From the NCBI GenBank assembly GCA_965247265.1, contig OZ252002.1:1962565-2026564 (forward strand): 64,000 bases of DNA, given 5' to 3'. The notes under the pieces are model-generated. The model was not told the origin of the DNA, searched no databases, and was given only the letters and a program-made list of their open reading frames with translations. The position numbers and the translations under genes are program-made. Source of the DNA: Gammaproteobacteria bacterium (lineage in GTDB: Bacteria > Pseudomonadota > Gammaproteobacteria > UBA4575). The first letter of the stretch is position 1; every line of letters begins with the position of its first letter. This document shows, piece by piece, positions 24,577-61,643 of the stretch.

Positions 24577-24942
24577 ATGCGCAAGCGTTTCAAAGAGACC
24601 GAGATCATCAATCTGTTGCGAGGCATTGAAGTAAAGATAGCCGAAGGCCGGGCCGTGCCGGATGCGTGTCGCAGTGCGGGCGTGAGTGATAAAAGCTATT
24701 ATCGCTGGCGTAAGCTCTACGGCAGTATGGGCAGCAGTGAAGTGAAGAAGTGTAAGGAATTGGAGAAGGAGAACGATCGACTCAAACACATTGTCGCCGA
24801 TTTGGAACTCGATAAATGCATCCTGAAGGAAGCGCTGGATTTTTTAGGACACAAGGGGCAGGTCCCGAACAAGTACGCAAAACGGTCATGCATGTCCGTC
24901 AACGCCTGGGGAGTAGCGAGCGCCGCACCTGTCGTATATTAG
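24577..24942 (+). CDS. IS3-family transposase OrfA
   Basis: MRKRFKETEIINLL...SYYRWRKLYG...ELEKENDRLKHIVADLELDKCILKEAL. Confidence 0.7.
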   Translation: MRKRFKETEIINLLRGIEVKIAEGRAVPDACRSAGVSDKSYYRWRKLYGSMGSSEVKKCKELEKENDRLKHIVADLELDKCILKEALDFLGHKGQVPNKYAKRSCMSVNAWGVASAAPVVY

Positions 24943-25724
24943 ATCAACCTCGCAGCACGCAACGCTATGGTTGCATCCAGAATACTGACAATGAGGATGC
25001 CCTGAGACTAGCCCTGGTTCGTTTGGCCAAGCAGTACGGGTGGTACGGTTATCGCAAGATGACCGCCTTGCTTCGCATCGAAGGTTGGCGCGTCAATCAC
25101 AAAAAAGTCGGACGTTTATGGCGAGAAGAAGGATTGCAAGTACCCAAGCGTCATAAGAAACGTAAACGGCTCTACGACCATAAACATTCCATCATTCGGA
25201 TGCGGCCCCTCTATCCACGACACATCTGGAGTGTTAATTTTGTACAAGATCGACTCATCCATGGTCGCCCCTACAAGATGTTAACGGTAATCGATGAATA
25301 TACCCGGCAGTGTTTAATAGTTGCCACGCAGTTTGCGATGACGTCACAAGAGGTGTTGGAAACACTGAGCCAACTCTTTATTCAACATGGAAAACCCCAC
25401 TATATCCGTAGTGACAATGGCGGCGAATTCAAAGCCAGGCGGTTACAACAGCGGCTCACGCAAGTCGGTGTAGAACCGATTTATATCTACCCCGGCAGTC
25501 CTTGGGAGAATGGATATAACGAACGCTTCAATGGCACCTTACGAAATGAAGTACTTAACCTCGAGGTCTTCTATTCCATCCAAGAAGCACAATCAGTGAT
25601 TAAACAATGGGTGCAACAATACAATCACACCAGGCCCCGTCAATCATTAAACTATCGACCTCCTGTGCCCGAAACCACGACACCTGCTCTCTCACAAGAA
25701 GTGGTACATACCAAGGGGGCTTGA
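24816..25724 (+). CDS. IS3-family transposase OrfB (DDE integrase core)
   Basis: ...RRTCRILDQPRSTQRY...HIWSVNFVQD...LTVIDEYTRQCL...IRSDNGGEFKA...WENGYNERFNGTLRNE. Confidence 0.75.
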   Translation: MHPEGSAGFFRTQGAGPEQVRKTVMHVRQRLGSSERRTCRILDQPRSTQRYGCIQNTDNEDALRLALVRLAKQYGWYGYRKMTALLRIEGWRVNHKKVGRLWREEGLQVPKRHKKRKRLYDHKHSIIRMRPLYPRHIWSVNFVQDRLIHGRPYKMLTVIDEYTRQCLIVATQFAMTSQEVLETLSQLFIQHGKPHYIRSDNGGEFKARRLQQRLTQVGVEPIYIYPGSPWENGYNERFNGTLRNEVLNLEVFYSIQEAQSVIKQWVQQYNHTRPRQSLNYRPPVPETTTPALSQEVVHTKGA

Positions 25725-26811: not shown

Positions 26812-27037
26812 AGATTATCGGTTGCGCTTTTACGAGCATCCAAGACCAGCATTAAAAACGTTAAAAAAATACGTTCGTGATGGCGATTTATCAGGCGGTT
26901 TTATTGATAGTAAAGGATATTATTGGGTAGACTTGGACAAAACCGAAATTGAAAATACTCGTTTAGCAGAAGATATCGAAATCGACGAAATTTTAAAACG
27001 CACTCCTGAAGCAGAAGAACAAATAAAAGGTTTATGA
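26792..27037 (+). CDS. small phage protein upstream of and overlapping the integrase (possible excisionase/regulator)
   Basis: 81-aa ORF overlapping the integrase start by 4 nt. Assigned by position only. Confidence 0.3.
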   Translation: MKLLRLKDYRLRFYEHPRPALKTLKKYVRDGDLSGGFIDSKGYYWVDLDKTEIENTRLAEDIEIDEILKRTPEAEEQIKGL

Positions 27038-28185
27038 ATCCTAGAAAGTGGAAGCACGACTTACCAGATAATTTAACACTGGATGAGTCTAAAGGTCGTT
27101 ATCGTTACTGGCATCCTATTAAAAAAAATCGAACCTGGCTGGGAAAAGATAAAGCCAAAGCTATGCAATTAGCTACAGATTTTAATCTTGCTATTGAATT
27201 ACAATTACAAAAAAGACGAATCGAGAATGGAAATCCATACAAAGTTAAACATCTTGTTAATTTGTTCCGTGCATCTGCGATTCATAACGAGCCGTGGGAT
27301 GATGGCACAAAACGTAATTACGAATTTAAGTTAAATGTAATTAATGATGAATATGGAAATCACCATTTTGTTGCTATTGATCGTTTAGAAATTGATAAGT
27401 TTTTAACACTACGTTGTAAAAATGCTGATACTTGGAATAAATGGCGGTATGTATTCATATTGTTATATCGCTTTGCTATTAGCAAAAAAATAGTCGAATT
27501 TAATGAAGCTGAAGCTGTATTGAAAAGATCGACTAGCAAAAAAATAGCATATAACCGCACTCAGAGAATCCCTTTAACTATAGATCGTTTCTGGAAGATT
27601 CATGATCATGAAGAAACCGAACCTTTTATGAAAGTGGCAATGAAGTTTTCACTGGTAACATTACAATCAAGATTTGAATGTGTAAGTGTAAAATATACAG
27701 ATGAACGAGACGGATTTATTTATATTATTCGCGACAAGACATCTGGTGATTCAGATATGGCCTTTATTCGTATCGAAGTTACCGACCAAATAAAGGAGAT
27801 CATTGGTGAATCACGTAACGATAATGTAGTAACCCCTTACATTGTTCATCGTAAACCTAAATCACGCCAACGTCGACATATAGATAACAAACCACACTGG
27901 ACTTATGTTGAGCCTGATTTTATTACCAAGGAATTTCGCAGAGTAATGTTATTAGCATGTCCTGAATATAAAAATACAGGTCGTCAATGCCCTACTTTTC
28001 ATCAAATACGTAAGCTTGGCGCGAATCTGTATTACGACGGTGGCTACACAAAGGACCAAGTACGCTCACTCATGACTCACACAGACGAGAAAACCACTCA
28101 AATCTATTTAACCACTGGCCAAGTACCAGATAATCGATTTATCAAGGTAAAAGCCTCACTTAAGCTGTCAGATTTTAGAACTTGA
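27034..28185 (+). CDS. int: tyrosine site-specific integrase (383 aa) adjacent to tRNA-Gly
   Basis: C-terminus ...RQCPTFHQIRKLGANLYYDGGYTKDQVRSLMTHTDEKTTQIYL carries the HxxR and catalytic Tyr. Transcribed toward the tRNA-Gly 3' end 127 nt downstream. Confidence 0.8.
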   Translation: MNPRKWKHDLPDNLTLDESKGRYRYWHPIKKNRTWLGKDKAKAMQLATDFNLAIELQLQKRRIENGNPYKVKHLVNLFRASAIHNEPWDDGTKRNYEFKLNVINDEYGNHHFVAIDRLEIDKFLTLRCKNADTWNKWRYVFILLYRFAISKKIVEFNEAEAVLKRSTSKKIAYNRTQRIPLTIDRFWKIHDHEETEPFMKVAMKFSLVTLQSRFECVSVKYTDERDGFIYIIRDKTSGDSDMAFIRIEVTDQIKEIIGESRNDNVVTPYIVHRKPKSRQRRHIDNKPHWTYVEPDFITKEFRRVMLLACPEYKNTGRQCPTFHQIRKLGANLYYDGGYTKDQVRSLMTHTDEKTTQIYLTTGQVPDNRFIKVKASLKLSDFRT

Positions 28186-28311: not shown

Positions 28312-28388
28312 ATGGAGCGGGAAACCAGGTTCGAACTGGCGACCTCAACCTTGGCAAGGTTGCGCTCTACCAACTGAGCTATTCCCGC
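28312..28388 (-). tRNA. glyW: tRNA-Gly (anticodon GCC)
   Basis: Reverse complement GCGGGAATAGCTCAGTTGGTAGAGCGCAACCTTGCCAAGGTTGAGGTCGCCAGTTCGAACCTGGTTTCCCCGCTCCA resembles E. coli glyW. The 3' acceptor strand has one extra C (77 nt). Confidence 0.85.
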
Positions 28389-34432: not shown

Positions 34433-35020
34433 ATGAAAATTATTTTGGCATCTAGCTCTCCTTACAGGAAAAAATTGTTAAACACTTTGCTGCCTTCGTT
34501 AACTTGCATCGCTCCAAATATTAATGAATCTTTACATGAAGGAGAATCACCCGCCAAGAATGTAACTCGGCTTTCATTCGAAAAAGCAAAAGCAGTATCA
34601 CATCAATTAGGAAATGCTCTTATTTATTGGTTCAGATCAATGTGCAGAACTAAATGGGAATATAATTTGTAAACCTAATGATCATAATGAAGCATTCAAT
34701 CAACTATCAGCCGTTAGTGGCAAACAAGTTACTTTTTACACTGGCCTATGCCTACTCAATTCAAAAAGTAAGGCCCATCAGGTATGTTGCGAAACATTTC
34801 AAGTCCAATTTCGTGATTTAAAAAACGAACAAATTACAGCTTATTTAAAAAGAGATGAGCCTTATGATTGTGCAGGAAGTTTTAAATCAGAAAGTTTAGG
34901 GTTAAGCACTGTTTAAAAAAATGCAGGGTGATGACCCTAACACACTCATAGGCTTGCCAATGATTAGGCTTATTTCAATGTTGTCCAATGAAGGCATCGA
35001 TGTATTAACAAATTCAGCCT
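34433..35020 (+). pseudogene. maf: Maf-like nucleotide pyrophosphatase with two +1 frameshifts in T-runs
   Basis: MKIILASSSPYRKKLL... shifts to ...IGSDQCAELNGNIICKP...FYTGLCLLN...CAGSFKSESLGL and shifts again to ...DPNTLIGLPMIRL.... The shifts are near 34620 and 34915. Confidence 0.7.
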
Positions 35021-49080: not shown

Positions 49081-50280
49081 GATGCCTAAGACGATTGAGC
49101 GTTTAAGCGCACTGAAGAAGGGTCCAAAAGTTAAAGAAAAGTGACTGGTACGCTGATGGAGACGGCCTGTATCTACAAATAAGCCTTTCTGGATCAAAGT
49201 CTTGTGTATTCGCTATGTGCTGCATGGGAAAGAGCATCGACATGGGCTTGCTCATTTGACACCATCGACTTATCAACGGCTCGAAAGCATGCCAAAGAAT
49301 GCAGAGGGCTTAAAAAAGAAGGCATTGACCCCATTCAGTTTAAAAGGGCGCGCAACGCTAAAACCGCATTAAAGCAAGCCAAGAGCAAAACTTTTAAAGA
49401 TTGCGCACTAGCATATATTGATGCGCATAAAGCAGGTTGGAAAAGCCGGAAACACGAATCCCAGTGGCGCAACACACTCGAAACCTACGCATATCCAGTT
49501 ATTGGAAATATATCTATCCAAAGCATTGATGTTGCGTTTGTACTAAAAGTACTTGAACCCATTTGGTATGAGAAAACTGAAACGGCAACACGAGTAAGGC
49601 AACGTATCGAGAATATTCTAGATTGGGCTACCGCACGCAGATACCGAACTGGTGAAAACCCTGCAAGATGGCGAGGTCATTTAGATAAACTCCTGCCAAA
49701 ACGCACAAAGATACAAAAAGTAAAGCATTTCAGTGCAATGCCGTATACAGAATTACCTAAGTATTATGCAAAGCTAAGAAAGAAAGACACCATTGCAGCA
49801 CAAGCATTAGCTTTTACTATCCTTACTGCTACGAGAATAAGCGAGTCAAGAAACGCTGCATGGAAAGAAATTAACCTGAAAACTAAAGAATGGAATATCC
49901 CAGATGTGCGCATGAAAGCGGGTCGACCCCATCGTATACCGTTATCAAAAGAAACTATTACAATATTAAAGAAGGCAAAAATACTTTCACCTGATCAACT
50001 TTTATTTGAGGGAAATATTTTAGGCAGACCAATAAGTGATTCATCCATTAGATCATTGTTGCAAGAAGACTATCCTGATGTAACGGTGCACGGATTTCGT
50101 TCTACTTTTCGCGATTGGTGTGCAGAAATGACTTCGTATCCACGAGAAGTAGCGGAAGCCGCCCTTGCTCACACTATAAAAGATGCAACAGAAAGAGCGT
50201 ATCAACGTGGTGATATATTTAGGAAACGACAACGGTTGATGAATGCATGGGCTAGTTATATATGCGGAGTTAAGGCATGA
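49081..50280 (+). pseudogene. int: P4-type tyrosine integrase with two N-terminal frameshifts
   Basis: MPKTIERLSALKKGPKVKEK | ...WYADGDGLYLQISLSGSKSCVF... | ...AKECRGLKKEGIDP...HGFRSTFRDW...LAH.... Confidence 0.65.
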
Positions 50281-51062
50281 GACTGATGGCAAAACTCCCA
50301 CTGCTGAAGTATTGGAAGCTTGAAGAAGTTTTTAAGAAGAATGAGGGTAAATATTTACTTGATCTTGATGACGAAGAATATAAAACATCAACTTCTGGCT
50401 TCAAAAATAAGCTCTTTCGCGCAATTGATTTAGAAGAAATAGAAACACACAAGTTTAAAAATGATGCTGCTGTTTACTTGCTTAAAGATGACGTTTATGA
50501 ATGGTTTTTTTCTATATACCGCGTAACACTTGACAATTTATTAGATTTACAAATGGGGTATTACACAGATGATAAACCTGATTACATAGCATTTTCTAAT
50601 GCGGCGCATAACCAGAGTGACCCACACAATGAAAGTGCTTTGAATATTCATACTGCATTTTGCTATTTAGTAGGAATACCTATAACTCGTGGTAAGTCAT
50701 TGTGGTCTAAAGAAGAGAAAGAGGAATTTGGTAAATTTAATGAATTTACAGATGGTCGAGAATTTATTTCTCCAAACAGAATAAAATTTATATCAGAAAA
50801 AACAAATATTCCTATGCCTGAAGAAATGATTATTGTGTTCGACGAATATGAGTTTTTGAAGGAAAATAACCCACAAAAAAGAAAACACCCTTTAAAAAAG
50901 TTTATACAAGAGAAGCGTAAAGAGATGTATCAGGAAATTGGGAAAGACCCTGATAAAGAAGCATTATGGAAACGATTTAAAAAGATTCAGACTGAAAATA
51001 ATTTACTTGAAAAGGTTTGGGATGATGTTTTTAGCTGGAAAACCCAAACACATTTATTATAA
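50277..51062 (+). CDS. hypothetical protein (261 aa), start overlaps the integrase stop (ATGA)
   Basis: AT-rich. Lys/Glu-rich. No recognisable domain. Confidence 0.35.
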   Translation: MRLMAKLPLLKYWKLEEVFKKNEGKYLLDLDDEEYKTSTSGFKNKLFRAIDLEEIETHKFKNDAAVYLLKDDVYEWFFSIYRVTLDNLLDLQMGYYTDDKPDYIAFSNAAHNQSDPHNESALNIHTAFCYLVGIPITRGKSLWSKEEKEEFGKFNEFTDGREFISPNRIKFISEKTNIPMPEEMIIVFDEYEFLKENNPQKRKHPLKKFIQEKRKEMYQEIGKDPDKEALWKRFKKIQTENNLLEKVWDDVFSWKTQTHLL

Positions 51063-51244
51063 AAGAAGTTCCATTTAAAAATTTTGATAGACTAGTAAGA
51101 GAAGTTAAAAAAATTACCCACCACCATAATATTTTCATTTTTTTTCATATATTTTCTTAGCCGTCCCTTAGCCGTCTTTAGCTGTAAATTTATTGTGGGA
51201 TAATCTCTCCGGTGGAGACAAACTTAATCCGATGGAGATCAAAA

Positions 51245-51517
51245 ATGGCGAATAATCCTGAAACTGGCTTTATACGTGTAAAGCATATAGTTGGCGACCC
51301 AAATGCAGAGCCACCAATACCCGCAATTACCCCTGTTTCAAAATCCACTTGGTGGGACGGTGTCAAAACAGGCCACTTCCCACAGCCTGTGAAACTTGGC
51401 GTTAATACTACAGCGTGGCGAGCTGAAGACATTCGGAAAAGGAGTTTAAAACAAGCTGGGTTGGATAATTCAAAAACAAGATGTTTAATGTCCGCTAACG
51501 ACCCAAAGCGGACATAG
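51245..51517 (+). CDS. alpA: AlpA-family phage regulatory protein (excisionase-like DNA-binding)
   Basis: ...ITPVSKSTWWDGVKTGHFPQPVKLGVNTTAWRAEDI.... The C-terminus is encoded by a REP-like element. Confidence 0.65.
   Translation: MANNPETGFIRVKHIVGDPNAEPPIPAITPVSKSTWWDGVKTGHFPQPVKLGVNTTAWRAEDIRKRSLKQAGLDNSKTRCLMSANDPKRT
51488..51515. repeat. REP-like palindrome, subfamily b (ATGTCCGCTAACGACCCAAAGCGGACAT)
   Basis: 9-bp perfect stem, 10-nt loop. Identical cores at 55196 and 56114. Confidence 0.6.
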
Positions 51518-51688
51518 GAACTAGTTCAAGACTTGGTTGGCCCAGTCTGAATTGGTTGATTCTTGTTGCGAGGTATTTTGTACAAATAAGGCGTACACTT
51601 CACATCCCTTTCATATCGTTTCTATCGAGTCTGTCGGCAATCCTGCCCACACCCTCTTGAGCGGTTATCAAACCTTTAGGAGGTTACT

Positions 51689-51970
51689 ATGGGCAATAAA
51701 CTTTACATCGGAAATTTACCGTACTCAGCAAATCAACAAACACTTCAGGACGCATTTGGCAAGTGTGGCACAGTCGATTCGGTTAATGTAATCATGGATC
51801 GTCAAACTGGTCAGAGCAAAGGCTTTGGTTTTGTCGAGATGTCGAGTAGTGCCGAGGCGCAAAAGGCTATCCAAGAAATCAATGGATCTAGCATTGACGG
51901 GCGCGAGGTAAAAGTCAATGAGGCAAAACCCAAAGAGAAGAGATCTGGCGGCGGTGGAAAGCGCTGGTAA
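51689..51970 (+). CDS. RRM-domain RNA-binding protein (93 aa)
   Basis: RNP-2 LYIGNL, RNP-1 KGFGFVEM, glycine-rich tail. Confidence 0.75.
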   Translation: MGNKLYIGNLPYSANQQTLQDAFGKCGTVDSVNVIMDRQTGQSKGFGFVEMSSSAEAQKAIQEINGSSIDGREVKVNEAKPKEKRSGGGGKRW

Positions 51971-52059
51971 GCACTATCCGCTTAACATGTGATGATTTTA
52001 AGACATCATATTCTATTCAGCTTCGAGCTAGTGCACGAAGTCTGTTTAAGTGAACACGC

Positions 52060-52326
52060 ATGACAGATGAACCCTCAGTGGTTCGTAAACAGTACGAGAT
52101 CGTATCGATCCTGCGAACAGTGTCACCGCCCGGTGCGGATGGCTCTGATTGGCACCGTTATGAGATTGCATATGGCACGAATATCATCAACGGTTACAAA
52201 CAAGGAAGTCTCGACGCCGTGACAACAGCAGTGGAAGTAAATGTCGCCCAATTAAACGAACGCCAACGGGGCAATTGTGGCCACGTTAACATTTGGCCGT
52301 CGTCGAAAAATAAACCCAGCAACTGA
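52060..52326 (+). CDS. hypothetical protein (88 aa)
   Basis: ORF followed by a REP-like element. Confidence 0.3.
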   Translation: MTDEPSVVRKQYEIVSILRTVSPPGADGSDWHRYEIAYGTNIINGYKQGSLDAVTTAVEVNVAQLNERQRGNCGHVNIWPSSKNKPSN

Positions 52327-52360
52327 CATTTCAGATCGCTGCCGACTGAGTGGTTATGAA

Positions 52361-52388
52361 TGACCGCTATTGGCCGAAAGCAGACAAA
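52361..52388. repeat. REP-like palindrome, subfamily a (TGACCGCTATTGGCCGAAAGCAGACA)
   Basis: Family consensus. Confidence 0.55.
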
Positions 52389-52504
52389 TCTAATCTTCAG
52401 GTAAATGTTCACTTCCTATACTGTTCAAATCACAAGTTGTGTTTTTTATTTATGTACACAATTGGGTCAATAAATTTGGACAGACCTATTAATTTGAAAA
52501 GTCA

Positions 52505-53008
52505 TTAGTTATTAATTATTAATTTAATTGTGACGGGCATTTTATTGTCGCCCGAAAAATATGACTTGACGGCGATACGAAATCTAGAAACATCTATACC
52601 AAGGTAAGTACCTTTTATACGTTTCATCTTTTCAAGTCCTTCAGTCGCCATGCGCTTTGCAACATCGTTAAATCCCTGGAATTTCTTAAGATGGGCGGCA
52701 GAGATCTGGATCAAGCCCTGTATAAACAACCCCGTTTCGGTTTGTCTTCCTGCTGCGACCCAGACTACTTCAAGTGCTTCATGCGCCTCCCACCAATAAC
52801 CGTAATTGAATAAATCGATACCATATAAATACTCATTACAAGATTGCCACTGCTTGTTTTCAAATGATGTGAGCTTTTCTAAAGGTTTCTCATATGAATG
52901 TCCATTTGGATCGCGGGTCGGATGCGGTGATTTTTTTGGAATAAAACGATATGGCGGAAATGGTCGGTCAGTGTAACGAGAGGTAGATTTTTTTACAGGT
53001 GACTTCAT
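52505..53008 (-). CDS. DUF309-domain protein
   Basis: ...LFNYGYWWEAHEALEVVW...GLIQISAAHL.... The true start is probably MKSPVKK; the longer ORF overlaps the upstream gene. Confidence 0.45.
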   Translation of the reverse strand: MKSPVKKSTSRYTDRPFPPYRFIPKKSPHPTRDPNGHSYEKPLEKLTSFENKQWQSCNEYLYGIDLFNYGYWWEAHEALEVVWVAAGRQTETGLFIQGLIQISAAHLKKFQGFNDVAKRMATEGLEKMKRIKGTYLGIDVSRFRIAVKSYFSGDNKMPVTIKLIINN

Positions 53009-53022
53009 TTTTGCAGGATAAA

Positions 53023-54702
53023 TTAATTCAGGTGCCAATAAGCAGGTAGTGGCTGTAGACGAGGATCGTCTACTGGTGCACCGACAGTAAAATGGTACAA
53101 ACTCTGCCAACTGTGATCACTAATGCCAAGTACCTCATGCATGGCATCATCAAAAAAGCAGCCGATCCCTGTAGATCGAATTCCAGCTGCTTCGGCTTCC
53201 AGGTACAGGATTTGTCCTATCAATCCCGTTTCCCAAAACAGACGCGTATAAAATAATGCACCGTGTTGTTCAAGACTGGCATCGAACTCCGCCAGCATCC
53301 CCAGTGCAAAGGCACCGTCTGCAGCAATATCTTGATGACAACTAATTATTTTTGCGACCTCACATGCATCGGCTTCTTGTAGCATATACAGAGGGAGAAT
53401 CTCTGGACAACCTTCGGGTTTTTTCCAACATAGCTCAGAACGCAATGACTTTTTTAAAGAAGGTTCGTGACTAGGATCGCGAACGAGCATATACAATCCA
53501 GTTGGTAAATCTTCTACACGGTGAACGAAAATTGCGAGTGAAACGGTTGCCTGCCAAGGCAGTACTTCTATTATATTTTTTCCCATATGCGGAGAGGCAT
53601 GTGCCATCATTCTATAAAAGGTATCTTTACTAATCGTGTTACGCCCATCCATCGCCAGTGCGCTTCGACGTTCCCTTATAATTTTTCGCGCTGATATTTG
53701 CCTGTCTTCAACAAATTCAATTTTATTATTATGTTCTATTAGTGAATACAATTTGTGATCCAATGGACAATGACTATCGAAACGGCATGCTTCAGCAACG
53801 CGCTCAATGATCGGCCAATCATGATGATCATTACTTAATGTATTTGGACAACCTTCAAATTCGATTGTTTTAAGCCGTTCAAGTAATGCAGTAGAGAGAT
53901 TAACGATGTGATCTGTTAGTGTTATGCCTTCATCAAACGGGAAAATTGCGAGCAGGCAATCTGGATGTTCCGCCTCGATGCCTTCTTGTTGGCGCAGCCC
54001 TAATAGCGTTTCTAGTTCGTCATCAGTTACAGAGTTTATCAACTTGGTTTTCCAACCGAGTGCCGCTGCGGCAAAAGTAACTGCACCAATCGCATGTCCA
54101 ACATCGTGATGACAATAACGAAAGGCACGTTCACCATATTTCCATGATTCACGCCAATAGATCGAGGTCAGTGAAATTAACAGGGAATCTGTTGGTAGAT
54201 TCTGGCTTATGGCATTCCATTCCGTATTCGTCAGGATGGCTCGATTTTCTAATGCATGTTCTTGGGTAGAATAATGGTAGACAGCTGTTGCTTCACTTAA
54301 ATCTTCTATGGGACCAGCTATTAAATACGCTTCAGTGGGATGGAGATTGCCGCTTGAAGGATTAACACGTAAGGACCAGCGATTCCCGCCCGCCTGTTTC
54401 CAGGCAGAGATTGCGAGGCTCTCGTATAAGAGATGACTGATTGAATCCCTATTTATTGGGGCCACAGGTTCCTTACATGTATTAAATAATGAGTCATAGG
54501 TTGGTGTTTCAGTGATCTGCGGATGGTCAAGTGGAATTGTTAATGATGGGTTGTAACGCCGGAATGGATCGGGTTGACTCTTCCAGTCCAGGTAGCCCAA
54601 TGAACGTGAGTAGCGTTGAAGTTGATGCTTAGTTTGATTGTGATACTCGTATACGAGATCAAGTTTAGTGGTGTTACGATGATTCTTGGACATTTTTGTC
54701 AA
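53023..54702 (-). CDS. SagB/ThcOx-family dehydrogenase (tandem nitroreductase-like domains, 559 aa)
   Basis: N-terminal YHxxTKH signature (VYEYHNQTKHQLQRY) and two nitroreductase-like halves. Confidence 0.55.
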   Translation of the reverse strand: MTKMSKNHRNTTKLDLVYEYHNQTKHQLQRYSRSLGYLDWKSQPDPFRRYNPSLTIPLDHPQITETPTYDSLFNTCKEPVAPINRDSISHLLYESLAISAWKQAGGNRWSLRVNPSSGNLHPTEAYLIAGPIEDLSEATAVYHYSTQEHALENRAILTNTEWNAISQNLPTDSLLISLTSIYWRESWKYGERAFRYCHHDVGHAIGAVTFAAAALGWKTKLINSVTDDELETLLGLRQQEGIEAEHPDCLLAIFPFDEGITLTDHIVNLSTALLERLKTIEFEGCPNTLSNDHHDWPIIERVAEACRFDSHCPLDHKLYSLIEHNNKIEFVEDRQISARKIIRERRSALAMDGRNTISKDTFYRMMAHASPHMGKNIIEVLPWQATVSLAIFVHRVEDLPTGLYMLVRDPSHEPSLKKSLRSELCWKKPEGCPEILPLYMLQEADACEVAKIISCHQDIAADGAFALGMLAEFDASLEQHGALFYTRLFWETGLIGQILYLEAEAAGIRSTGIGCFFDDAMHEVLGISDHSWQSLYHFTVGAPVDDPRLQPLPAYWHLN

Positions 54703-54849
54703 GCCGATTATTTAGACAGTACGCATTCAAATACTGCATTCGACATCACTAATATACTCTAGTCAAGTGACCACTTTTCAGCCGAAAGCAGGCGTTTTAT
54801 AATTACATTTTGTGCAATATAAAAATGCACAGGCCCTTCGTAGCAGAGG

Positions 54850-55164
54850 GTGTTTATGATCGACACAGAAAAGCTTTCTCGAATCTCAGATTATCTAAAA
54901 TCTATTTGGCTATCAGATAATGTTGAATACGAATATCTGACAAGCAGAGAATTACATAAATTTACATTTACAGGACCTGGCCACAAACAAGCTTTTTTAG
55001 TAAGCGATACTTATCTCAGTGATCACAGAATAGACGTAATACTAACTGATATGGATACTCGGCATGTTGAAGACATATTAATGAGTAGAAATAGTCACAA
55101 TGAGTATTATCTGGGTTACAACTCAAGCGGTGCAGTTACATTTTCCGTAGTAGAGAAAGAGTGA
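54850..55164 (+). CDS. hypothetical protein (104 aa)
   Basis: ORF in a small-gene array. No domain recognised. Confidence 0.3.
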   Translation: MFMIDTEKLSRISDYLKSIWLSDNVEYEYLTSRELHKFTFTGPGHKQAFLVSDTYLSDHRIDVILTDMDTRHVEDILMSRNSHNEYYLGYNSSGAVTFSVVEKE

Positions 55165-55195
55165 GGCCGTGGGAAATGAGGAAGAAGTAAAATGT

Positions 55196-55223
55196 ATAAC
55201 CGCTAACGACCCAAAGCGGACAT
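55196..55223. repeat. REP-like palindrome, subfamily b
   Basis: ATAACCGCTAACGACCCAAAGCGGACAT. Confidence 0.55.
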
Positions 55224-55253
55224 TATAGTTAAAAAATTTATTTTAAAATTCCT

Positions 55254-55544
55254 ATGAATGAAATAAATAAGTTGTGGGAAGAATTTCAGAATATACCATT
55301 CCCGAAGGACTTAGCAGGAGAAGAAATTGACGGAGTTGATTTAATGTCGATTGATACTTTTGCTGCTAGTTGTATAAGTACTTATATAGAGAATCGAGGT
55401 AAATTAGATAATCATAGGCACGCTGTATTACGAGAATGCATGTCTGATTTAGATAAAGTAATAAATAAAATCAGAGAGGAAGGAGAAAAATCGTTCTCGC
55501 TTCTATATAAATTAGGGACAATGATTCTAGATGAGCTTAAATGA
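55254..55544 (+). CDS. hypothetical protein (96 aa); the TGA stop lies inside a REP-like element
   Basis: ...DELK-TGA-CCGCAATTGGCCGAAAGCAGACAC. Confidence 0.3.
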   Translation: MNEINKLWEEFQNIPFPKDLAGEEIDGVDLMSIDTFAASCISTYIENRGKLDNHRHAVLRECMSDLDKVINKIREEGEKSFSLLYKLGTMILDELK

Positions 55545-55568
55545 CCGCAATTGGCCGAAAGCAGACAC
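55542..55568. repeat. REP-like palindrome, subfamily a
   Basis: TGACCGCAATTGGCCGAAAGCAGACAC. Confidence 0.55.
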
Positions 55569-55597
55569 ACGCTTTAAAAATTATGGTTAGATGCTAG

Positions 55598-56116
55598 ATG
55601 GGTAATATTTTATACGCAGCATATGGTTCAAATCTTCACCCAATACGATTATCGGAACGTGTTCCATCAGCAAAATTCTTAGGAAAAGGGATTCTTAATA
55701 AAAAGGTTCTTCGATTTCATAAACTCAGCAAAGATGGTTCCGGGAAATGCAATATTGTTAATGACGACAAACAGAACATCTATCTTGCAGTATATAAAAT
55801 AGATCCATCTGAAAAACTGTTATTGGATAATATTGAAGGCGTTGGATATGGCTACCGAACTGAAGAAGTTAAGGTAGCTGGTTTTGGTACATGTTTCACC
55901 TACATTGCGCAGGAATCTCATATAGTCGACTCACTCAACCCTTACACGTGGTATAAGGAGTTGGTCCTTGTCGGATGTATAAATTTGGAGTTCCCACCAG
56001 ATTATATTGAACGAATTCGTGATGTTGAGGCTGATGTTGATATAGATAAGCAAAGACATTCAAAACACATGCAGTTGGTCGCGAATGCAAAAAATAATCA
56101 TATAGATTTTTTATGA
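55598..56116 (+). CDS. gamma-glutamyl cyclotransferase-like (AIG2/GGCT fold) protein
   Basis: N-terminus LYAAYGSNLHPIRL matches the YGSNL signature. The stop TGA is the first three bases of a REP-like element. Confidence 0.45.
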   Translation: MGNILYAAYGSNLHPIRLSERVPSAKFLGKGILNKKVLRFHKLSKDGSGKCNIVNDDKQNIYLAVYKIDPSEKLLLDNIEGVGYGYRTEEVKVAGFGTCFTYIAQESHIVDSLNPYTWYKELVLVGCINLEFPPDYIERIRDVEADVDIDKQRHSKHMQLVANAKNNHIDFL

Positions 56117-56140
56117 CCGCTAACGACCCAAAGCGGACAT
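56114..56140. repeat. REP-like palindrome, subfamily b
   Basis: TGACCGCTAACGACCCAAAGCGGACAT. Confidence 0.55.
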
Positions 56141-56214
56141 TTTATAATTGAAAAGTCGTTTCTTTAAGCCAGTAAAGTAGCTTAATTATCTTCTGCATTA
56201 AATACCGCTGTGAC

Positions 56215-56463
56215 GTGCTGATAAGAGAGTGTTACGAGAGTTTGTATTACCTACCCAAACAAAAGCGTATCATTTTAATTGTGGATGCTATACGCAGACA
56301 AAGAAGAAAGTGTAAAGTGCAAAGTTATTCGCCTACATTTGAATTATGGTTCAACAAACTCATTGCAGTGATGGATCAGCTAGGAGCTGCCGAGTACTCG
56401 TATGAAACGATCAGGAAAGCGGCACACAATCCTTTACTAACTTATTACAGTGACGGTTACTGA
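56215..56463 (+). CDS. hypothetical protein (82 aa)
   Basis: ORF only. Confidence 0.25.
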   Translation: MLIRECYESLYYLPKQKRIILIVDAIRRQRRKCKVQSYSPTFELWFNKLIAVMDQLGAAEYSYETIRKAAHNPLLTYYSDGY

Positions 56464-56465
56464 AC

Positions 56466-56663
56466 GTGATGAAACAATTACAGAATTGCAGAGCGTGCAA
56501 ACACCATGAAAAAATCTTGAACAGCACGCATATTAACTGCGCCAGCGTCAAAGCCAGCCCTACACCCATGACGCGTGCAAGCAATTCAAATTATTGGAAC
56601 TGGCCAACCGATTTTGATCCGATCTGGTTACAAAGTTGCAATGATTTTAAAAAAGGACGTTAA
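56466..56663 (+). CDS. hypothetical Cys-rich small protein (65 aa)
   Basis: CRACKHH...C...C pattern. Confidence 0.25.
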   Translation: MMKQLQNCRACKHHEKILNSTHINCASVKASPTPMTRASNSNYWNWPTDFDPIWLQSCNDFKKGR

Positions 56664-56690
56664 TTTAGTTTAAAAAAATAGCAAGAAAAT

Positions 56691-57498
56691 GGCACTAGTT
56701 GAGACGGTACTGACAAGTTAACTTTCATGCGTCTGCGAGTTCCAGTAAATACATATTCTATAATGCCGTAACGCAATTCCAAGACGCAAAGGCGTTCTCT
56801 CTAAATATTCGGTAATGCTTTGCTGATACTAAATGACGACCAAGATTGAACAGATTGTATACCGCTGCATGAGCATTTAAAAATCGTTGCGCTTGTTGCA
56901 TCGATTTGAATCGCCGCATGCCTCGCTCTCGAACGCGTGTCGGTTGACGTGAAACTTCGGCTCGGTTATTCGCATACTGAGTGGTATCGTGAATGGACTC
57001 TGGAATGAGTTCTCGGTGCGCGACACCATAACTTCTCAATTTATCCGTCACGATCTTTCTGGGCTCACTGCCATGCTTTTTTATTAGGCGCTTGAAAAAA
57101 TGCTTGGCTGCTTTACCATCGCGCCGTGCCTGTAAAAATACATCGACAACTTCGCCATCCTGGTCCACTGCACGCCACAAGTATTTCTGTTGTCCATGAA
57201 TCTTAACGAAAACTTCATCTATATAAAGTGTATCGCCATACCCTCGGTGTCGACGCTTCAATTGCCTGGCGTATTGAGGACCAAATTTGTTACACCACAA
57301 ACGAATGGACTCATAGCTGACTTCAACGCCTCGTTCAGTTAACAGATCTTCAATATCGCGATGACTTACATTGAATCGATAGTAAAGCCATACAGCATAT
57401 TGAATAATTTCAGAAGGAAAGCGATGACGTTTATATGAACTGATTGATGTATTCATCTAGACATTGTCGCGCAGATGCACTTAACTTGTCAGTACCGT
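56691..57498 (-). mobile_element. IS6-family insertion sequence (IS26-like)
   Basis: Transposase flanked by inverted repeats ACGGTACTGACAAGTTAA (56704-56721) and TTAACTTGTCAGTACCGT (57481-57498). The left flank GGCACTAGTTGAG resembles the IS26 terminus. Confidence 0.7.
56758..57456 (-). CDS. IS6-family DDE transposase (232 aa)
   Basis: MNTSISSYKRHRFPSEIIQYAVWLYYRFNVSHRDIEDLL...LYIDEVFVKIHGQQKYLWRAVDQDG.... Confidence 0.8.
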   Translation of the reverse strand: MNTSISSYKRHRFPSEIIQYAVWLYYRFNVSHRDIEDLLTERGVEVSYESIRLWCNKFGPQYARQLKRRHRGYGDTLYIDEVFVKIHGQQKYLWRAVDQDGEVVDVFLQARRDGKAAKHFFKRLIKKHGSEPRKIVTDKLRSYGVAHRELIPESIHDTTQYANNRAEVSRQPTRVRERGMRRFKSMQQAQRFLNAHAAVYNLFNLGRHLVSAKHYRIFRENAFASWNCVTAL

Positions 57499-57854
57499 AA
57501 GCAGACATTAAAAAAATATTTATAAAAAAATATAAAAATATATTTTGAGGGTGACACTAAAGCCTAGATTTAGCAGACCCCGATCGGATGCACTCCCACC
57601 TTTCTAAATAGACACAACTCTAGATTAAAAACTCCACCACATGCGCAAACCCATGAAGTCGAAATCCCCAGCAGTGGGAAGATCGAATTGCGCGAGCAAA
57701 TCATACTTATATATAAGTAGCCGACCACATGTGCAGATCAATGTTAAAATGCTGACAAAGACTCAGAAATTAAAAGAGACTTGTATATAGATACGTATAT
57801 AGAGATTATCTATGAAGTATATATTTATATATATCATACAGTTGTAGTTGTATC

Positions 57855-57868
57855 TGGCGGAGAGTGAG
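57855..57868 (+). repeat. candidate att direct repeat TGGCGGAGAGTGAG (partner of 48926-48939)
   Basis: 14/15 identity. Preceded at 57781-57810 by two ACGTATATAG repeats that also occur at 49051-49082. Confidence 0.4.
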
Positions 57869-58100
57869 GGATTCGATACATCTCGCACTATTTAGCCCCT
57901 AATATGTTCAATCACTTATATTAGCTTCCTCAGAGCATAGTTGTATTTGATGGGGCTGGATGGGGGGTAAACGCGACAGATTTCGTGACACCTCAATAAG
58001 CACTTACTACCCATATATTAGATTCTGAATATCACTACCTCAGAAATATAATTTCCACAACGAGGACATTTCATGAACGGCTATGATAGCTTGTCAGATC

Positions 58101-58685
58101 ATGTGTGGCCGCTTTTCACTAGATCATTATCCTAAGTCCATCATCGATGCATTAGATGTGGGCCCTGTTCAATTTTCCCCTCGAACACAAGTCTATCCGA
58201 CCCAGCAAGTCGATGTCATTTTCCGTAGCGATTACGGTAACGAAGTTGCTGGAATGACATGGGGTTGGGAACGACCATTCACCAAAAGACCATTAATTAA
58301 TGCCCGTGGATTCGATGCATGGGAAAAACGTACATGGTCTAAAGCCATGCGTGAACGTCGTTGCATAATTCCTACAAGTGGATTCTTTGAGTGGAATGAG
58401 AATCAACCAAAAGGTAATCGGGACCGTTACAGAATAAATCCAACGTTTGATGATGGCTTTGCATTTGGTGGATTGTATGAAATCAATTCCGAATCAGGCG
58501 AAATGTTTACATCTATTCTTACAACAGATCCAAATAAAAAGATGGCAAAGATCCATCATCGTATGCCTGTAATCCTAGATAATCATGAATATGACAATTG
58601 GTTTAAGTCAGATGATCGAGAATTGATTAATCATCTAATGAGCCCTGCAAATGAAAAATGGATAGAAGTAGTAAAAGGTATATGA
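58101..58685 (+). CDS. yedK: SOS-response-associated peptidase (SRAP/YedK, abasic-site processing)
   Basis: MCGRFSL... N-terminus with catalytic Cys2. About 195 aa. Confidence 0.75.
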   Translation: MCGRFSLDHYPKSIIDALDVGPVQFSPRTQVYPTQQVDVIFRSDYGNEVAGMTWGWERPFTKRPLINARGFDAWEKRTWSKAMRERRCIIPTSGFFEWNENQPKGNRDRYRINPTFDDGFAFGGLYEINSESGEMFTSILTTDPNKKMAKIHHRMPVILDNHEYDNWFKSDDRELINHLMSPANEKWIEVVKGI

Positions 58686-58940
58686 ACTATTTCTGTTTGC
58701 AGTCCCTTATTGAGAATATGTAATGGATATTGGCCAGCTTATAACATTAGTCTTAATGCTCATGTTTGCAGCTTATATTTGTTTAGGAAAAAGTAATGAA
58801 TATAGAAACGCAATTATTAGTCTATTTAATATTGTTGATGTTATCTGACACCGTAATTCCATTACCAATTACAGCGAGCATATTATTTTTTGTCGTATTA
58901 AAGCGTCCTGAATGGTTTAGAGATTTATATCATCAAGTAT

Positions 58941-59390
58941 ATGAATAAGTTCTTGCCACTCATTTTAATTGTATGCGCAACGATATATTTTTATCCGATT
59001 ACTTCCTTAGCGCAAAAATTCGATCCTGATAGCGAAGAAGGCAAAGCCTTTAATAATGAATCTAGTGAATTTGTTACCTGCTCCAGCTTTTATGGAGTGC
59101 TTAATGAAGCCGCAAAAAGATCCGAGAGTGAAGATGCGGCTGAATTAGCTGTCAAGTCAGTACATTTCAGTGAAGAGGCTTTTGATTATGCTTTACTTTA
59201 TGCTGAGACAACGCGTAGTGAAGATCTAGCAATGAAAGTTACGCTCGCAAGACTTAAGTTGGAAATAGATGATATGAAAAAAGAAATTGAAGGAGATTTT
59301 AGCAACACACCTATTCTAATGGCCAAATATCTTGAACCATGCAAGGAAAAAATGGAACACCCTACTGCTGTTATTGAAAAGTGGCAATAA
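58941..59390 (+). CDS. secreted hypothetical protein (149 aa)
   Basis: Signal peptide MNKFLPLILIVCATIYFYPITSLA. Confidence 0.35.
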   Translation: MNKFLPLILIVCATIYFYPITSLAQKFDPDSEEGKAFNNESSEFVTCSSFYGVLNEAAKRSESEDAAELAVKSVHFSEEAFDYALLYAETTRSEDLAMKVTLARLKLEIDDMKKEIEGDFSNTPILMAKYLEPCKEKMEHPTAVIEKWQ

Positions 59391-59496
59391 ATAACATAAA
59401 TTTAAACATATTTTATTTTGGATTAGCACTATGCGTCTAATCCCACTCATTTTAATTTATTTGCAACATCTACGTTGTGATTTAGCGAGGTAGCTT

Positions 59497-59682
59497 ATGT
59501 GCAATTACGATCTAATTGAATATTATCAACTATTACAAGAAGACTCTGAAAAAATTGATAAAGAATTATCAAAGCTAGACGATATAATTAGTGAAATACA
59601 TCGCGATAATTCTTTGGAAACAAGTTACGCAGAGAAACTAACAGAAACGGCCAGATTACAAACAAAATTCCAGGAGTCGTAA
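59497..59682 (+). CDS. small hypothetical protein (61 aa)
   Basis: Coiled-coil-like. Immediately upstream of the VOC gene. Confidence 0.25.
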   Translation: MCNYDLIEYYQLLQEDSEKIDKELSKLDDIISEIHRDNSLETSYAEKLTETARLQTKFQES

Positions 59683-59684
59683 TC

Positions 59685-60062
59685 ATGCCTAATACTAAAA
59701 GCTATGACATTTTATCAATTAACGCTGTAACACTTGCTACTTCTAATATGATGCAAGCAATAAAGTTTTACAAGAAAATTGGTTTTGTATTGTTTCAAGG
59801 TGGTATAGAGGAAATGTTTACTAGTTTTAAAGTCGGGGAATCACAAATACTAAACATAACAATAGAAAGACCAGATTTTAGAGGTTTATGGTGGGGTCGT
59901 ATAATTTTTTATGTCTCTAATGTTGATATTTTATATCAGCATATTATTAAGCATGGATTAAATCCAGATTTTGCTCCTCGAGATGCTGCGTGGAATGAAC
60001 GCTATTTCCATATTACCGATCCAGATGGTCATGAACTAAGTTTTGCCCAACGAATCACTTAA
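59685..60062 (+). CDS. VOC-family (glyoxalase/bleomycin-resistance fold) protein
   Basis: ...FHITDPDGHELSF... C-terminal VOC signature. Confidence 0.55.
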   Translation: MPNTKSYDILSINAVTLATSNMMQAIKFYKKIGFVLFQGGIEEMFTSFKVGESQILNITIERPDFRGLWWGRIIFYVSNVDILYQHIIKHGLNPDFAPRDAAWNERYFHITDPDGHELSFAQRIT

Positions 60063-60434
60063 TAATTACCTTAATTGTTATGAAAATATTGATAAACCTA
60101 TGCGCATCATCCAATCCTTTAACGACCTTGACCTATTAGAACAACTGTAACCGTACTGCACCGATTGCGGTCACTGTGGGGATGTGGTTGATGAATACTA
60201 CTTAACATAAAATGATTTATTAATAACTGACTTGCTGCACAAGCTTAAATGCAATCAGTGTGGCAGCAAGGATGTAACCTTCAAGCTTGTGTCCAATGAA
60301 GCAATGGCGTTTCTGGATAAGTCTAATGTTGCATTCTTTTCGGATAATTTGAGGACGGCATGAATGCCCGCTTTGGGTCGTAAGCGGTCATTCATTATTC
60401 CTACTAGCTTTTATTTATTACGTCGAACCGTGAT

Positions 60435-60940
60435 TCACTCACAGTTCAATGTTCCCCCCGCAACATTGAGGAAGGCACTCAAAGTCGTGTTATTTACACA
60501 GATGAGATTACCTGCTGCAATGTTCTTCTGGACAAGCGCTTTTGCATTCCTATTTACTGTGATCCTGCCGCTTAAGGTCTCATTTTCAATGACGTTCGCG
60601 GGTTGCATGCTCAAGCACAACGAGATCCCCTGTGAACACGGTGTTGGCGATGACATTAGCAACGGCCGATGCCTTCCTGCCCATCAGTACGAACTACCCG
60701 GATCCTGCCACCAACCTTATTGTTCAGCAGTAAAACGTTATCAGTGTCTCTTATAGTAAGATTTCCCTTGATGGTGCTTGATATAATGGCACAAGAACTT
60801 TCAAGGCTAACTAATAAGTTATTTTCAAATGTTTCATTTTCAAGCACGCCGTCGCCACAACCCTCTGCCATGGCGGCACTTGATGTAATTACCAATAACA
60901 AAGAGACCGCGAAATTTACTATGAGCTGCTTTACTTTCAT
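60435..60940 (-). pseudogene. secreted repeat (beta-helix-like) protein, frameshifted near 60660
   Basis: Signal peptide MKVKQLIVNFAVSLLLVITSSAAMA. Two ORFs with parallel repeat text (LENETFENNLLVSL... / IENETLSGRITVN...). Confidence 0.4.
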
Positions 60941-61330
60941 TATTATTCTCCTCAGCTAACGGAAACTCTAGCTAAATAAGCTAAAAAAGTTCCAGATCAT
61001 AATACCAAAAAACAAAAGCGCTCCACATACGAATGTATAAATAAACAACCTATCAGCAAGTAAGAGTGGGGCTTTTTGTCCCTTCAAGATGATTGATTCG
61101 ATTTTGATCTTTTCTCGGTCTGTAGTCTCTCTCATTCTGATTATTCCCAATCCTTATATTCAGTAAAAAAACACCACTCACACATTAAGATCTTAAGGAA
61201 AAAATATCGAACAATTATTGATTTAGATCAATATAAATTTGAACCCTAAAGCGAGGGAGATAAAACTGTGGCAGCAGAGAAAAAATAAGTTATAAAACTG
61301 ATCTAAAGAAGCGTCTTTTAAATCATAGAA

Positions 61331-61356
61331 TGACCGCTTTTGGCCGAAAGCGGACA
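61331..61356. repeat. REP-like palindrome, subfamily a (TGACCGCTTTTGGCCGAAAGCGGACAT)
   Basis: Closest to the family consensus. Confidence 0.55.
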
Positions 61357-61364
61357 TTGCGTAA

Positions 61365-61643
61365 CTAATTTTGTATTAACCTTTCACTAAACTCCACCGA
61401 CACCTCCTCATACAACCAAGCATCTTGAGGTTCCTTCCATTCCTTAACTATCGTCTTCCTTCTTTCATATTCTCTATATTCAATAAGTCCCTCTTCCTTT
61501 AGCTTTGCGTAAATGGCTCTTAATGATAAGCATGCATCTGCTACATGCACCACATCTACTGGCTCCCATTCCACATATGGCTTCTTCATTATCTGATCAG
61601 CCTTGATAATCTCTTCTTTTATATTGGCGTGGATTTCAATCAA
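61365..61643 (-). CDS. hypothetical protein (92 aa)
   Basis: ORF only. Acidic. Confidence 0.3.
   Translation of the reverse strand: MIEIHANIKEEIIKADQIMKKPYVEWEPVDVVHVADACLSLRAIYAKLKEEGLIEYREYERRKTIVKEWKEPQDAWLYEEVSVEFSERLIQN

Follow-up and report, generated by a model that had tools for sequence, protein, structure and literature searches.

A 64,000-nucleotide stretch of a gammaproteobacterial genome (lineage UBA4575; assembly GCA_965247265.1, contig OZ252002.1, positions 1,962,565 to 2,026,564; hereafter the window) carries a family of 28-bp DNA palindromes resembling repetitive extragenic palindromic (REP) sequences and their hairpin-forming doublets (REPINs). The palindromes share one anatomy, recur across several classes of Proteobacteria, are concentrated in accessory DNA, lie at the boundaries of gene modules, coincide with rearrangements between strains and gave no evidence of a role as RNA. 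On the basis of sequence comparison, we propose with moderate confidence that these mobile elements may serve as joints at which accessory modules are gained, lost, exchanged or inverted, through cutting at their centre by an enzyme acting in trans.

The repeat unit is a 28-bp dyad, ATGNCCGCT-N10-AGCGGNCAT, laid out as ATG-N-CCGCT, a 10-nt centre and AGCGG-N-CAT, with two types of centre. Its arms, ATGTCCGCT and AGCGGACAT, are 9 bp long and extendable to 11-12 bp, giving a geometry of 12-4-12 or 11-6-11. The A-type centre, TGGCCG, was found at 52360, 55541 and 61330, and the B-type centre, CGACCC, at 51488, 55196, 56113 and 60364, the last of these inverted. At 51.4-61.4 kb there are seven good copies, one that is degenerate and one reduced to a half, with two further degenerate copies at 103-486. 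Searching both strands for the pattern CCGCWWWYGRCCSAAAGCRG with up to three mismatches returned 13 matches against 0.22 expected from shuffled sequence, a number reached in 0 of 100 shuffles. Copies are unevenly spread: a consensus scan at up to four mismatches found none at 487-51487, which includes about 23 kb of ordinary core genes (for example, uvrC, plsX, fabH, rne and rluC), and eight or nine at 51488-61357, so that those in the window are concentrated in the accessory segment. The initial annotation had described REP-like palindromes of about 28 bp, in two sub-types and placed at gene 3' ends. Its copies were located again, the size and shape of the dyads agree with a REP-like family, a position at gene 3' ends holds for most of them, and the unit itself is refined to two 9-12-bp arms around a variable centre.

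The elements mark the boundaries of accessory modules, and four independent lines of evidence put rearrangement points at them. Strain comparison, suggested as a check in the initial annotation, used three JGI contigs (L240, L241 and L242) that are 98-99% identical to the window at 54.2-61.6 kb, and these near-identical contigs show an inversion, a switch of centre and a difference between one element and two. Element 60364 is exactly inverted in L240 (36/36 positions match the reverse complement); the 3424 bp compared contain 34 differences, of which 8 fall in this element. At element 56113, identical flanks enclose the centre AACGACCC (B-type) in the window and L242, ATTGGCCG (A-type) in L241 and ATTGGCCC in L240. 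The single element 61330 of the window corresponds in L240 to two elements, and the 915-bp module between them carries a SET-domain-like gene with a frameshift. Half-sites in L240 run window-left plus module-right, the module, then module-left plus window-right, the order that integration of a circular module would leave. The 607-bp unit formed by an A-type element, a GGACT gene and a B-type element (55535-56141) is 95% identical to a unit on contig L243 with unrelated neighbours (AlaDH and GST genes), and homology between window and contig ends at the outer edges of both elements.

A further line comes from a Qin/DicB-type prophage of Escherichia coli, where eight different cargoes occupy the interval between hokD and a DUF977 (ydaW-like) gene. 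Cargo at this hotspot includes AbiH, SIR2, SMEK, FRG, RelA/SpoT and HAD+NUDIX (L150, L152-L157 and L166), and both borders lie inside palindrome copies. The backbone half-sites are constant, reading TAGTCCGCTTTGAGCG up to the left joint and GGCACAAAGCGGACAAcc from the right joint onwards; variation of the inner half-sites with the cargo places the joints at about positions 13-16 within the 28-mer. In many of the approximately 4000 genomes with the hotspot backbone, homology begins at the left edge of the element. Homology between near-identical islands on P4-like IMG/VR contigs also breaks at an element. The most informative remark of the initial annotation, that the layout recalls a cassette array, is borne out by these module boundaries and rearrangements, and its suggested link to mobile miniature elements is likewise supported.

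The family extends well beyond this window and this species. A scan of one genome per species found at least 148 sites at at least 118 loci, with Alphaproteobacteria (Pseudolabrys, Henriciella, Caulobacter and Sphingomonas), Betaproteobacteria (Massilia, Ralstonia and Rhodoferax) and Gammaproteobacteria (Lysobacter, Frateuria, Dyella, Coxiellaceae, Thiotrichales and several metagenome-assembled genomes (MAGs) of 38-41% GC) among the matches listed. The flanks ATGT/AT, which lie outside the search pattern, are 74-93% conserved at 144 sites in other genomes, and conservation ends at the edge of the 28-bp unit. An arms-only scan returned 566 sites in 1.1 Mb of matched loci compared with 0 in 315 kb of control sequence, which comprised 71 metagenomic loci picked for relatives of an integrase in the window. 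Recurrent centres among the 566 sites were GACCC, GGCCG/C, GGCAC, GAGCG, GGGGGT and GGATAG. The same arms occur in 29 IMG/VR viral contigs and, at prophages and islands, on E. coli chromosomes. The family had been called 'genome-wide', which is right in that it is not local but understates a range of several proteobacterial classes and, within the window, overlooks its restriction to accessory DNA; the alternative of a local duplication, with copies in this window only, is contradicted by the same arms in Alpha-, Beta- and Gammaproteobacteria. Full-text literature searches with sequence strings returned unrelated primer matches only. In Klebsiella and Enterobacter plasmids (L148 and L149) the same arms enclose other centres, TTTTCGCTCA and AAGAGCGAAG; these copies are in the leading regions, with psiB, parB-like and orphan methyltransferase genes nearby.

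Low-GC gammaproteobacterial MAGs related to the window contain small accessory open reading frames (ORFs), each followed by an element and all in a single orientation (L047, L072, L059, L114 and L102), a layout that palindromes acting as module joints would explain. One of them, L047, has the same rluC-sppA ... maf gene order as the window and carries an array between sppA and maf, SET-E-ORF166-E-ORF111-E (E, element); the equivalent interval of the window is about 20 bp long, with no array. Contig L239 holds 31 elements in 20.6 kb as A, a spacer of about 55 nt and B, with such doublets between almost all genes, and its asymmetric B units all share one orientation, even beside minus-strand genes. 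In the A-spacer-B doublets (L159/L239, L161 and L102), A and B pair with each other to give a single long hairpin with bulges, and a three-unit composite in Pseudolabrys likewise folds as a single long hairpin (z -4.9 to -5.3). A near-identical doublet (3 differences in 111 nt) stands beside different genes in L159 and L161. The window itself contains singlets only. Because GGACT homologues in other MAGs (L160 and L162-L164) have no adjacent elements, the elements are a property of certain lineages and not of the gene.

Other features of these loci concern gene content and annotation. SET-domain-like genes were found as element-flanked modules at two places (L047, 2886-3164; L240, 6215-6690), which suggests a cassette pool shared within the lineage. 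The maf gene (yceF-like) is seemingly split in the window (34433-35010), with overlapping ORFs at 34433-34672 and 34614-34916 that suggest a frameshift or pseudogene. For GGACT homologues in L159/L239 (10001-10609) and L161 (4001-4612), the called start is the ATG of an element, yielding proteins of 202-203 aa instead of about 170 aa. The element thus distorts annotation systematically, its ATG drawing gene callers into N-termini of the form MSANDPKRT... and its TGA ending upstream ORFs.

Individual copies in the window, which at 51488-61357 lie on the plus strand unless stated otherwise, differ in their relation to genes. The B-type copy ATGTCCGCTAACGACCCAAAGCGGACAT (51488-51515) has perfect 9-bp arms, folds as sense RNA with z -4.4 and, as had been noted initially, encodes the final nine codons (MSANDPKRT) of the AlpA-domain ORF 51212-51517, with TAG directly after it. 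The A-type copy ATGACCGCTATTGGCCGAAAGCAGACAA (52360-52387; sense RNA z +1.3) lies between convergent genes, 34 nt past the stop of ORF 52060-52326, and the B-type copy ATAACCGCTAACGACCCAAAGCGGACAT (55196-55223) lies 32 nt past the stop of ORF 54850-55164. The GGACT module is bordered on the left by the A-type copy ATGACCGCAATTGGCCGAAAGCAGACAC (55541-55568; sense RNA z +1.3) and on the right by the B-type copy ATGACCGCTAACGACCCAAAGCGGACAT (56113-56140). Both supply the stop codon of the upstream ORF, as previously claimed: the TGA within the former ends ORF 55254-55544, and that within the latter ends the AIG2/GGACT-like ORF 55598-56116. The further claim that each copy follows a small plus-strand gene holds for most, but not for three of them. 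The degenerate A-like copy GTGACCACTTTTCAGCCGAAAGCAGGCG (54767-54794) is not at a gene 3' end; it occupies a divergent promoter region between a nitroreductase-family gene (minus strand, start 54702) and ORF 54850, is kept with one change in L241 and has no significant fold. The B-type copy at 60364-60391 has the opposite orientation, reads ATGACCGCTTACGACCCAAAGCGGGCAT on the minus strand, is nested inside a longer TGAATG...CATTCA palindrome and folds as RNA with z -5.8. The A-type copy ATGACCGCTTTTGGCCGAAAGCGGACAT (61330-61357) abuts the 3' end of the minus-strand ORF 61365-61643, 8 nt from its stop. A right-arm remnant, (T)AAGCAGACAT (57498-57508), abuts the right inverted repeat of an IS6-family insertion sequence (IS). 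Outside the island lie the degenerate A-type copies ATGCCCACTTTCGGCCAAAAGAAGACAT (103-130) and ATGTCCGCATTCGGCCAATAGCTATCAT (459-486).

The initial annotation had proposed a probable role as mRNA 3' stabilisers or terminators. Such a role would make the elements hairpins that act in RNA on the transcript before them and that travel along with the genes served, an explanation we now consider very unlikely. It draws on the five of eight window copies that overlap or lie within 35 nt of a plus-strand stop codon, and on the five of eight that fold as sense RNA with z between -3 and -5.8. However, no window copy is followed by a T tract, and an intrinsic-terminator scan called none in the sense orientation, its one call being a short stem inside the inverted copy (60376-60389). 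Two of the eight copies, 52360 and 55541, fail to fold as sense RNA because G-to-A changes create C·A mismatches. Among 409 28-bp copies from many genomes, pair 6-23 is C-G in 276, T-G in 57, C-A in 46 and T-A in 7; the 7 double changes compare with about 8 expected under independence, arm substitutions are one-sided and compensatory changes are absent. The pattern looks like decay of replicas from a master sequence and not like selection on a structure. Element orientation is unchanged beside minus-strand genes in L239, E. coli cargo is flanked by elements on both its 5' and 3' sides, and conservation across classes extends to the arm sequence itself, not merely its pairing. Rfam yielded no family at gathering or E-value threshold for the window and four Pseudolabrys loci. 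Within the reach of these tests, the palindrome is not an RNA element, and the case for a terminator or stabiliser is weak. Arm changes are most often C-to-T transitions, on either strand, at the CpG of CCGC/GCGG, at positions 6 and 23 (57 and 46 of the 409 copies), which would fit deamination of methylated cytosine.

If the palindromes are joints, breakage and rejoining inside them would insert, remove, exchange or flip DNA. A dimeric recombinase or transposase supplied in trans would bind both arms and cut in or beside the central 4-6 bp, and a circular module with one site could integrate into a resident site. For the SET module of L240, the circle would carry the predicted hybrid site ATGTCCGCTAATGG+CCGAAAGCGGTCAT. 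Stop codons and C-terminal extensions of upstream genes would be by-products of element ends that contain ATGA or TGA. A more specific version, which we think unlikely, takes the 28-bp dyads as crossover sites of an unrecognised cassette system, integron-like or dif-module-like, with its recombinase in trans. Circular one-site modules would then build chromosomal arrays in several proteobacterial classes, and at hotspots in prophages, P4-like satellites and plasmid leading regions they would load and swap cargo, anti-phage defence genes among it.

Several results weigh against the palindromes being dedicated joints. No recombinase or transposase linked to the elements turned up, either in the window or across some 1.5 Mb of related loci. 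No empty hotspot site, joining left and right backbone halves, was present in 5426 E. coli genomes, where the best match was one cargo with part of its interior deleted. Ordinary or slipped recombination between two direct repeats, identical at 23/28 positions, could equally have produced the 915-bp polymorphism by deletion, and the apparently hybrid centre in L240 is one base off that of L241 and may be a point mutation. Variants of 29 bp account for 136/566 sites, a misfit with strict recombinase geometry. The element-free GGACT homologues rule out that gene and element always travel together. In L239, very high element density beside ordinary-looking genes (DEAD helicase, FadL and AhpC) would be expected of a selfish repeat that proliferates just as much as of a cassette array.

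A selfish repeat is a real possibility, though we favour it less: the elements would be classical REP/REPINs copied into intergenic DNA by a single-copy Y1 transposase of the RAYT (REP-associated tyrosine transposase) type encoded elsewhere, and boundaries would coincide with them through short homology (RecA, Red/RecET or slippage). Such an origin would suit their size, imperfect dyad and extragenic position, the inverted doublets forming long hairpins, the decay from consensus without compensatory change, the very high local density, a presence that tracks lineage and not gene, and the near-identical doublet beside different genes in L159 and L161. It is harder to reconcile with window copies that lack GTAG at the foot of their hairpin, with a uniform orientation over 20 kb and with E. 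coli joints at the centre of the element, where copies share least homology. The arms are common to organisms from Alphaproteobacteria through to E. coli prophages and plasmids, whereas REPIN-RAYT systems are lineage-specific. No RAYT was found among 30 Pfam-scanned window proteins, and a crude screen for HUH and Y motifs revealed no RAYT-like ORF in the about 1.5 Mb of loci.

Two further explanations deserve far less weight. The A-spacer-B doublets could be divergent integron attC sites, with the arrays as sedentary integron cassette arrays and the 28-bp singlets as collapsed remnants; doublets of about 110-140 nt do form a bulged hairpin with a variable terminal loop, and the arrays are uniformly oriented with small, diverse genes (VOC, tautomerase, isochorismatase and GGACT). 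We find this hardly credible, as the core sites RYYYAAC ... GTTRRRY are not in the required arrangement, no IntI occurs in the window or beside any array seen, the same arms occur in integron-free E. coli prophages and plasmids, and singlets fall far below attC length, a point already made in the initial annotation. That the elements are operators for a dimeric host DNA-binding protein, whether regulator or nucleoid protein, is the account to which we give least credence. Dyad symmetry and arm conservation at the sequence level would be expected of operators, but the copies decay neutrally in place, with E. coli right-junction copies diverging in step with the backbone, and they lie mostly after genes and not at promoters. 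They also coincide with rearrangement points, and no regulator is consistently adjacent.

If a dedicated enzyme makes the joints, Proteobacteria and their phages, satellites and plasmids would share a widespread, unnamed route for acquiring and shuffling single-gene modules. Such an enzyme would also account for how sharply at least one defence hotspot in an E. coli prophage is bounded. If the palindromes are only REPIN-like, they would still be unusual in the conservation of their arms from Alphaproteobacteria to enterobacterial mobile elements and in their tight link to module boundaries. Arm conservation across classes contradicts the accepted picture of lineage-restricted REPINs.

The search for a partner enzyme covered both the window and the related loci. 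Clustering of ORFs within 2.5 kb of 155 sites recovered only abundant families (ABC substrate-binding proteins, LysR, SDR and ABC ATPases), and no consistent partner emerged near the sites when ORFs were screened for motifs of serine, tyrosine and Y1 enzymes. Serine recombinases were absent from the window, and one lies near the 148 sites, among the matches listed. A tyrosine recombinase of about 200 aa, in the size class of FimB/FimE, is encoded between palindrome clusters on two related viral contigs (L136, 3023-3688; L142, 1685-2296); it is the only small recombinase seen near the repeats, and its position may be a coincidence.

The island itself has a backbone just upstream of the first element (49204-51517, plus strand), comprising a P4-type tyrosine integrase (49204-50280), an ORF at 50277-51062 and the AlpA-like ORF 51212-51517. 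Its proteins are the P4-type integrase, AlpA-like, RRM, DUF309, nitroreductase-family, GGACT-like, IS6 transposase, SRAP, VOC, rhomboid and Toprim. The integrase ORF has a GTG start and matches only positions 51-82 of 83 of the arm-binding profile, with no adjoining tRNA gene. Because the match is partial and a tRNA gene is lacking, the integration module may be truncated. The palindrome is not the att site of this integrase, nor is the integrase its cognate enzyme, as 0 elements were present in the 71 loci (315 kb) with integrase relatives. The IS6-family IS (56704-57498; transposase 56758-57456, minus strand) has inverted repeats ACGGTACTGACAAGTTAA and no 8-bp target duplication. The 409 bp that follow it (57497-57905) are missing in L240, which is 99% identical, as expected for IS6-mediated adjacent deletion.

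A second, foreign island probably occupies 2000-25700 of the window, where the GC content is 46-68% compared with about 38% for the genome. It encodes a protein of 2787 aa that contains 17 fibronectin-III repeats (16042-24405, minus strand) and an IS3-family transposase (24577-25724). Two gene fragments in it, from an AAA_15/AAA_21 ATPase (12369-13334) and a UvrD-type helicase (10345-11520), together resemble a disrupted Gabija-type pair. A myo-inositol-1-phosphate synthase gene stands beside a fused nucleotidyltransferase / CDP-alcohol phosphatidyltransferase gene (2671-5116, minus strand), the pair expected for synthesis of di-myo-inositol-phosphate, a compatible-solute pathway unusual for a low-GC gammaproteobacterium. 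A lambda-type integrase (27034-28185) lies beside tRNA-Gly (28313-28388).

Among known systems, REPs are imperfect palindromes of 20-40 bp, REPINs join two inverted REPs in a hairpin of about 100 nt with GTAG at its 5' foot, and the single-copy RAYT, a Y1 HUH transposase, has the repeats on its flanks. REP and REPIN sequences with their RAYT transposases are vertically inherited and lineage-specific (PMC3116915, PMC3337134, PMC3333891). The palindromes share with them many short, imperfect, extragenic copies, occurrence as singlets and as inverted doublets with long hairpins, decay from a master sequence and overlap with gene ends. They differ in that GTAG is absent from the hairpin 5' foot of all window copies (some doublet spacers have GTAG 5 nt upstream of B), in that their arms cross classes and are carried by phages and plasmids, and in that copies are concentrated in accessory DNA, keep the same orientation over 20 kb and sit at module boundaries. 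CGTC REPs are common in Alphaproteobacteria, include TGTC-starting variants, lack a dedicated transposase, and consist of an unpaired tag, an 8-9-bp stem beginning with A-T pairs, a 4-5-nt loop and a CCA tail (PMC3733652). In the present family TGTC is paired, its partner being GACA, the centre spans 10 nt and a CCA tail is lacking. The QMITE2 elements of Coxiella burnetii have REP-like small forms, lie in 3' untranslated regions overlapping gene ends by a few base pairs, form a long stem with a palindromic tip and have BLAST matches in Bradyrhizobium and Rhodopseudomonas (PMC5896051). Their spread from Coxiellaceae to Bradyrhizobiaceae parallels the distribution found here, and the two families, likened by description only, may be the same; the Coxiella plasmid QpH1 has no copy of the element. 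Miniature inverted-repeat transposable elements (MITEs) differ: the arms here are inverted repeats, but the flanks are inverted too (A...T, TGA...TCA), with no direct-repeat target duplication. Intrinsic terminators differ by the T/U tract, which is lacking after the hairpin.

Integron attC sites are 57-141 bp long, carry RYYYAAC ... GTTRRRY core sites and have an adjacent intI/attI. The likeness lies in arrays of small, mostly co-oriented accessory genes, each followed by a hairpin site of uniform orientation, in the alternation between one site and two sites flanking a module, and in doublets of attC size with a bulged stem. By contrast, the palindromes have no R''/R' core sites and no adjacent intI/attI, and their arrays occur at several loci, inside prophages and islands. 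We rejected identity with attC on the core-site arrangement, and the integrases in the window are P4-type and lambda-type only. In Acinetobacter plasmids, dif modules are flanked by 28-bp pdif (XerC/XerD) sites (PMC6449649, PMC13141974). Like these, the palindromes are 28-bp dyads, compatible with 11-6-11 or 12-4-12, that bound discrete modules shuffled between contexts, with no adjacent recombinase gene, so that the enzyme would have to work in trans. The consensus arms of XerC/XerD dif sites are GGTGCGCATAA / TTATGTTAAAT. The arms here, ATGTCCGCTTT / AAAGCGGACAT, are identical dyads, not one XerC and one XerD arm, and look unlike that consensus; the copies are chromosomal or in prophages and satellites, with hundreds of copies plus doublets in some genomes.

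PeSLs, the 'mobile regulatory cassettes' of T4-type phages, are short stem-loop repeats that flank novel ORFs in plastic regions, where a role in shuffling has been proposed. They resemble the palindromes as short stem-loop repeats around modules and differ in being phage-specific and carrying a promoter. Crossover sites of small serine recombinases (res site I and hix) pair two 12-bp half-sites around a central 2-bp crossover and have a cognate resolvase or invertase. Site I of the Tn3/gamma-delta res site is a 28-bp 12-4-12 dyad with the half-site TGTCYNNTA. The half-site TGTCCGCTA/T fits this motif, and the E. coli joints map to the central 4 bp, but the TGTC-to-GACA span is 26 bp here versus 28 bp, and no resolvase gene lies nearby. 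The Tn3 res sequence was confirmed to exist in this form, the comparison extending no further, and we treat the resemblance as a lead, not a result. Membership among attC, Xer/dif, CGTC-REP, MITE or intrinsic-terminator families fails on their defining features, and membership among REPIN-RAYT systems fails on the GTAG tag and lineage specificity. The palindromes are most like REP/REPINs in form, and most like dif modules or integron cassettes in behaviour.

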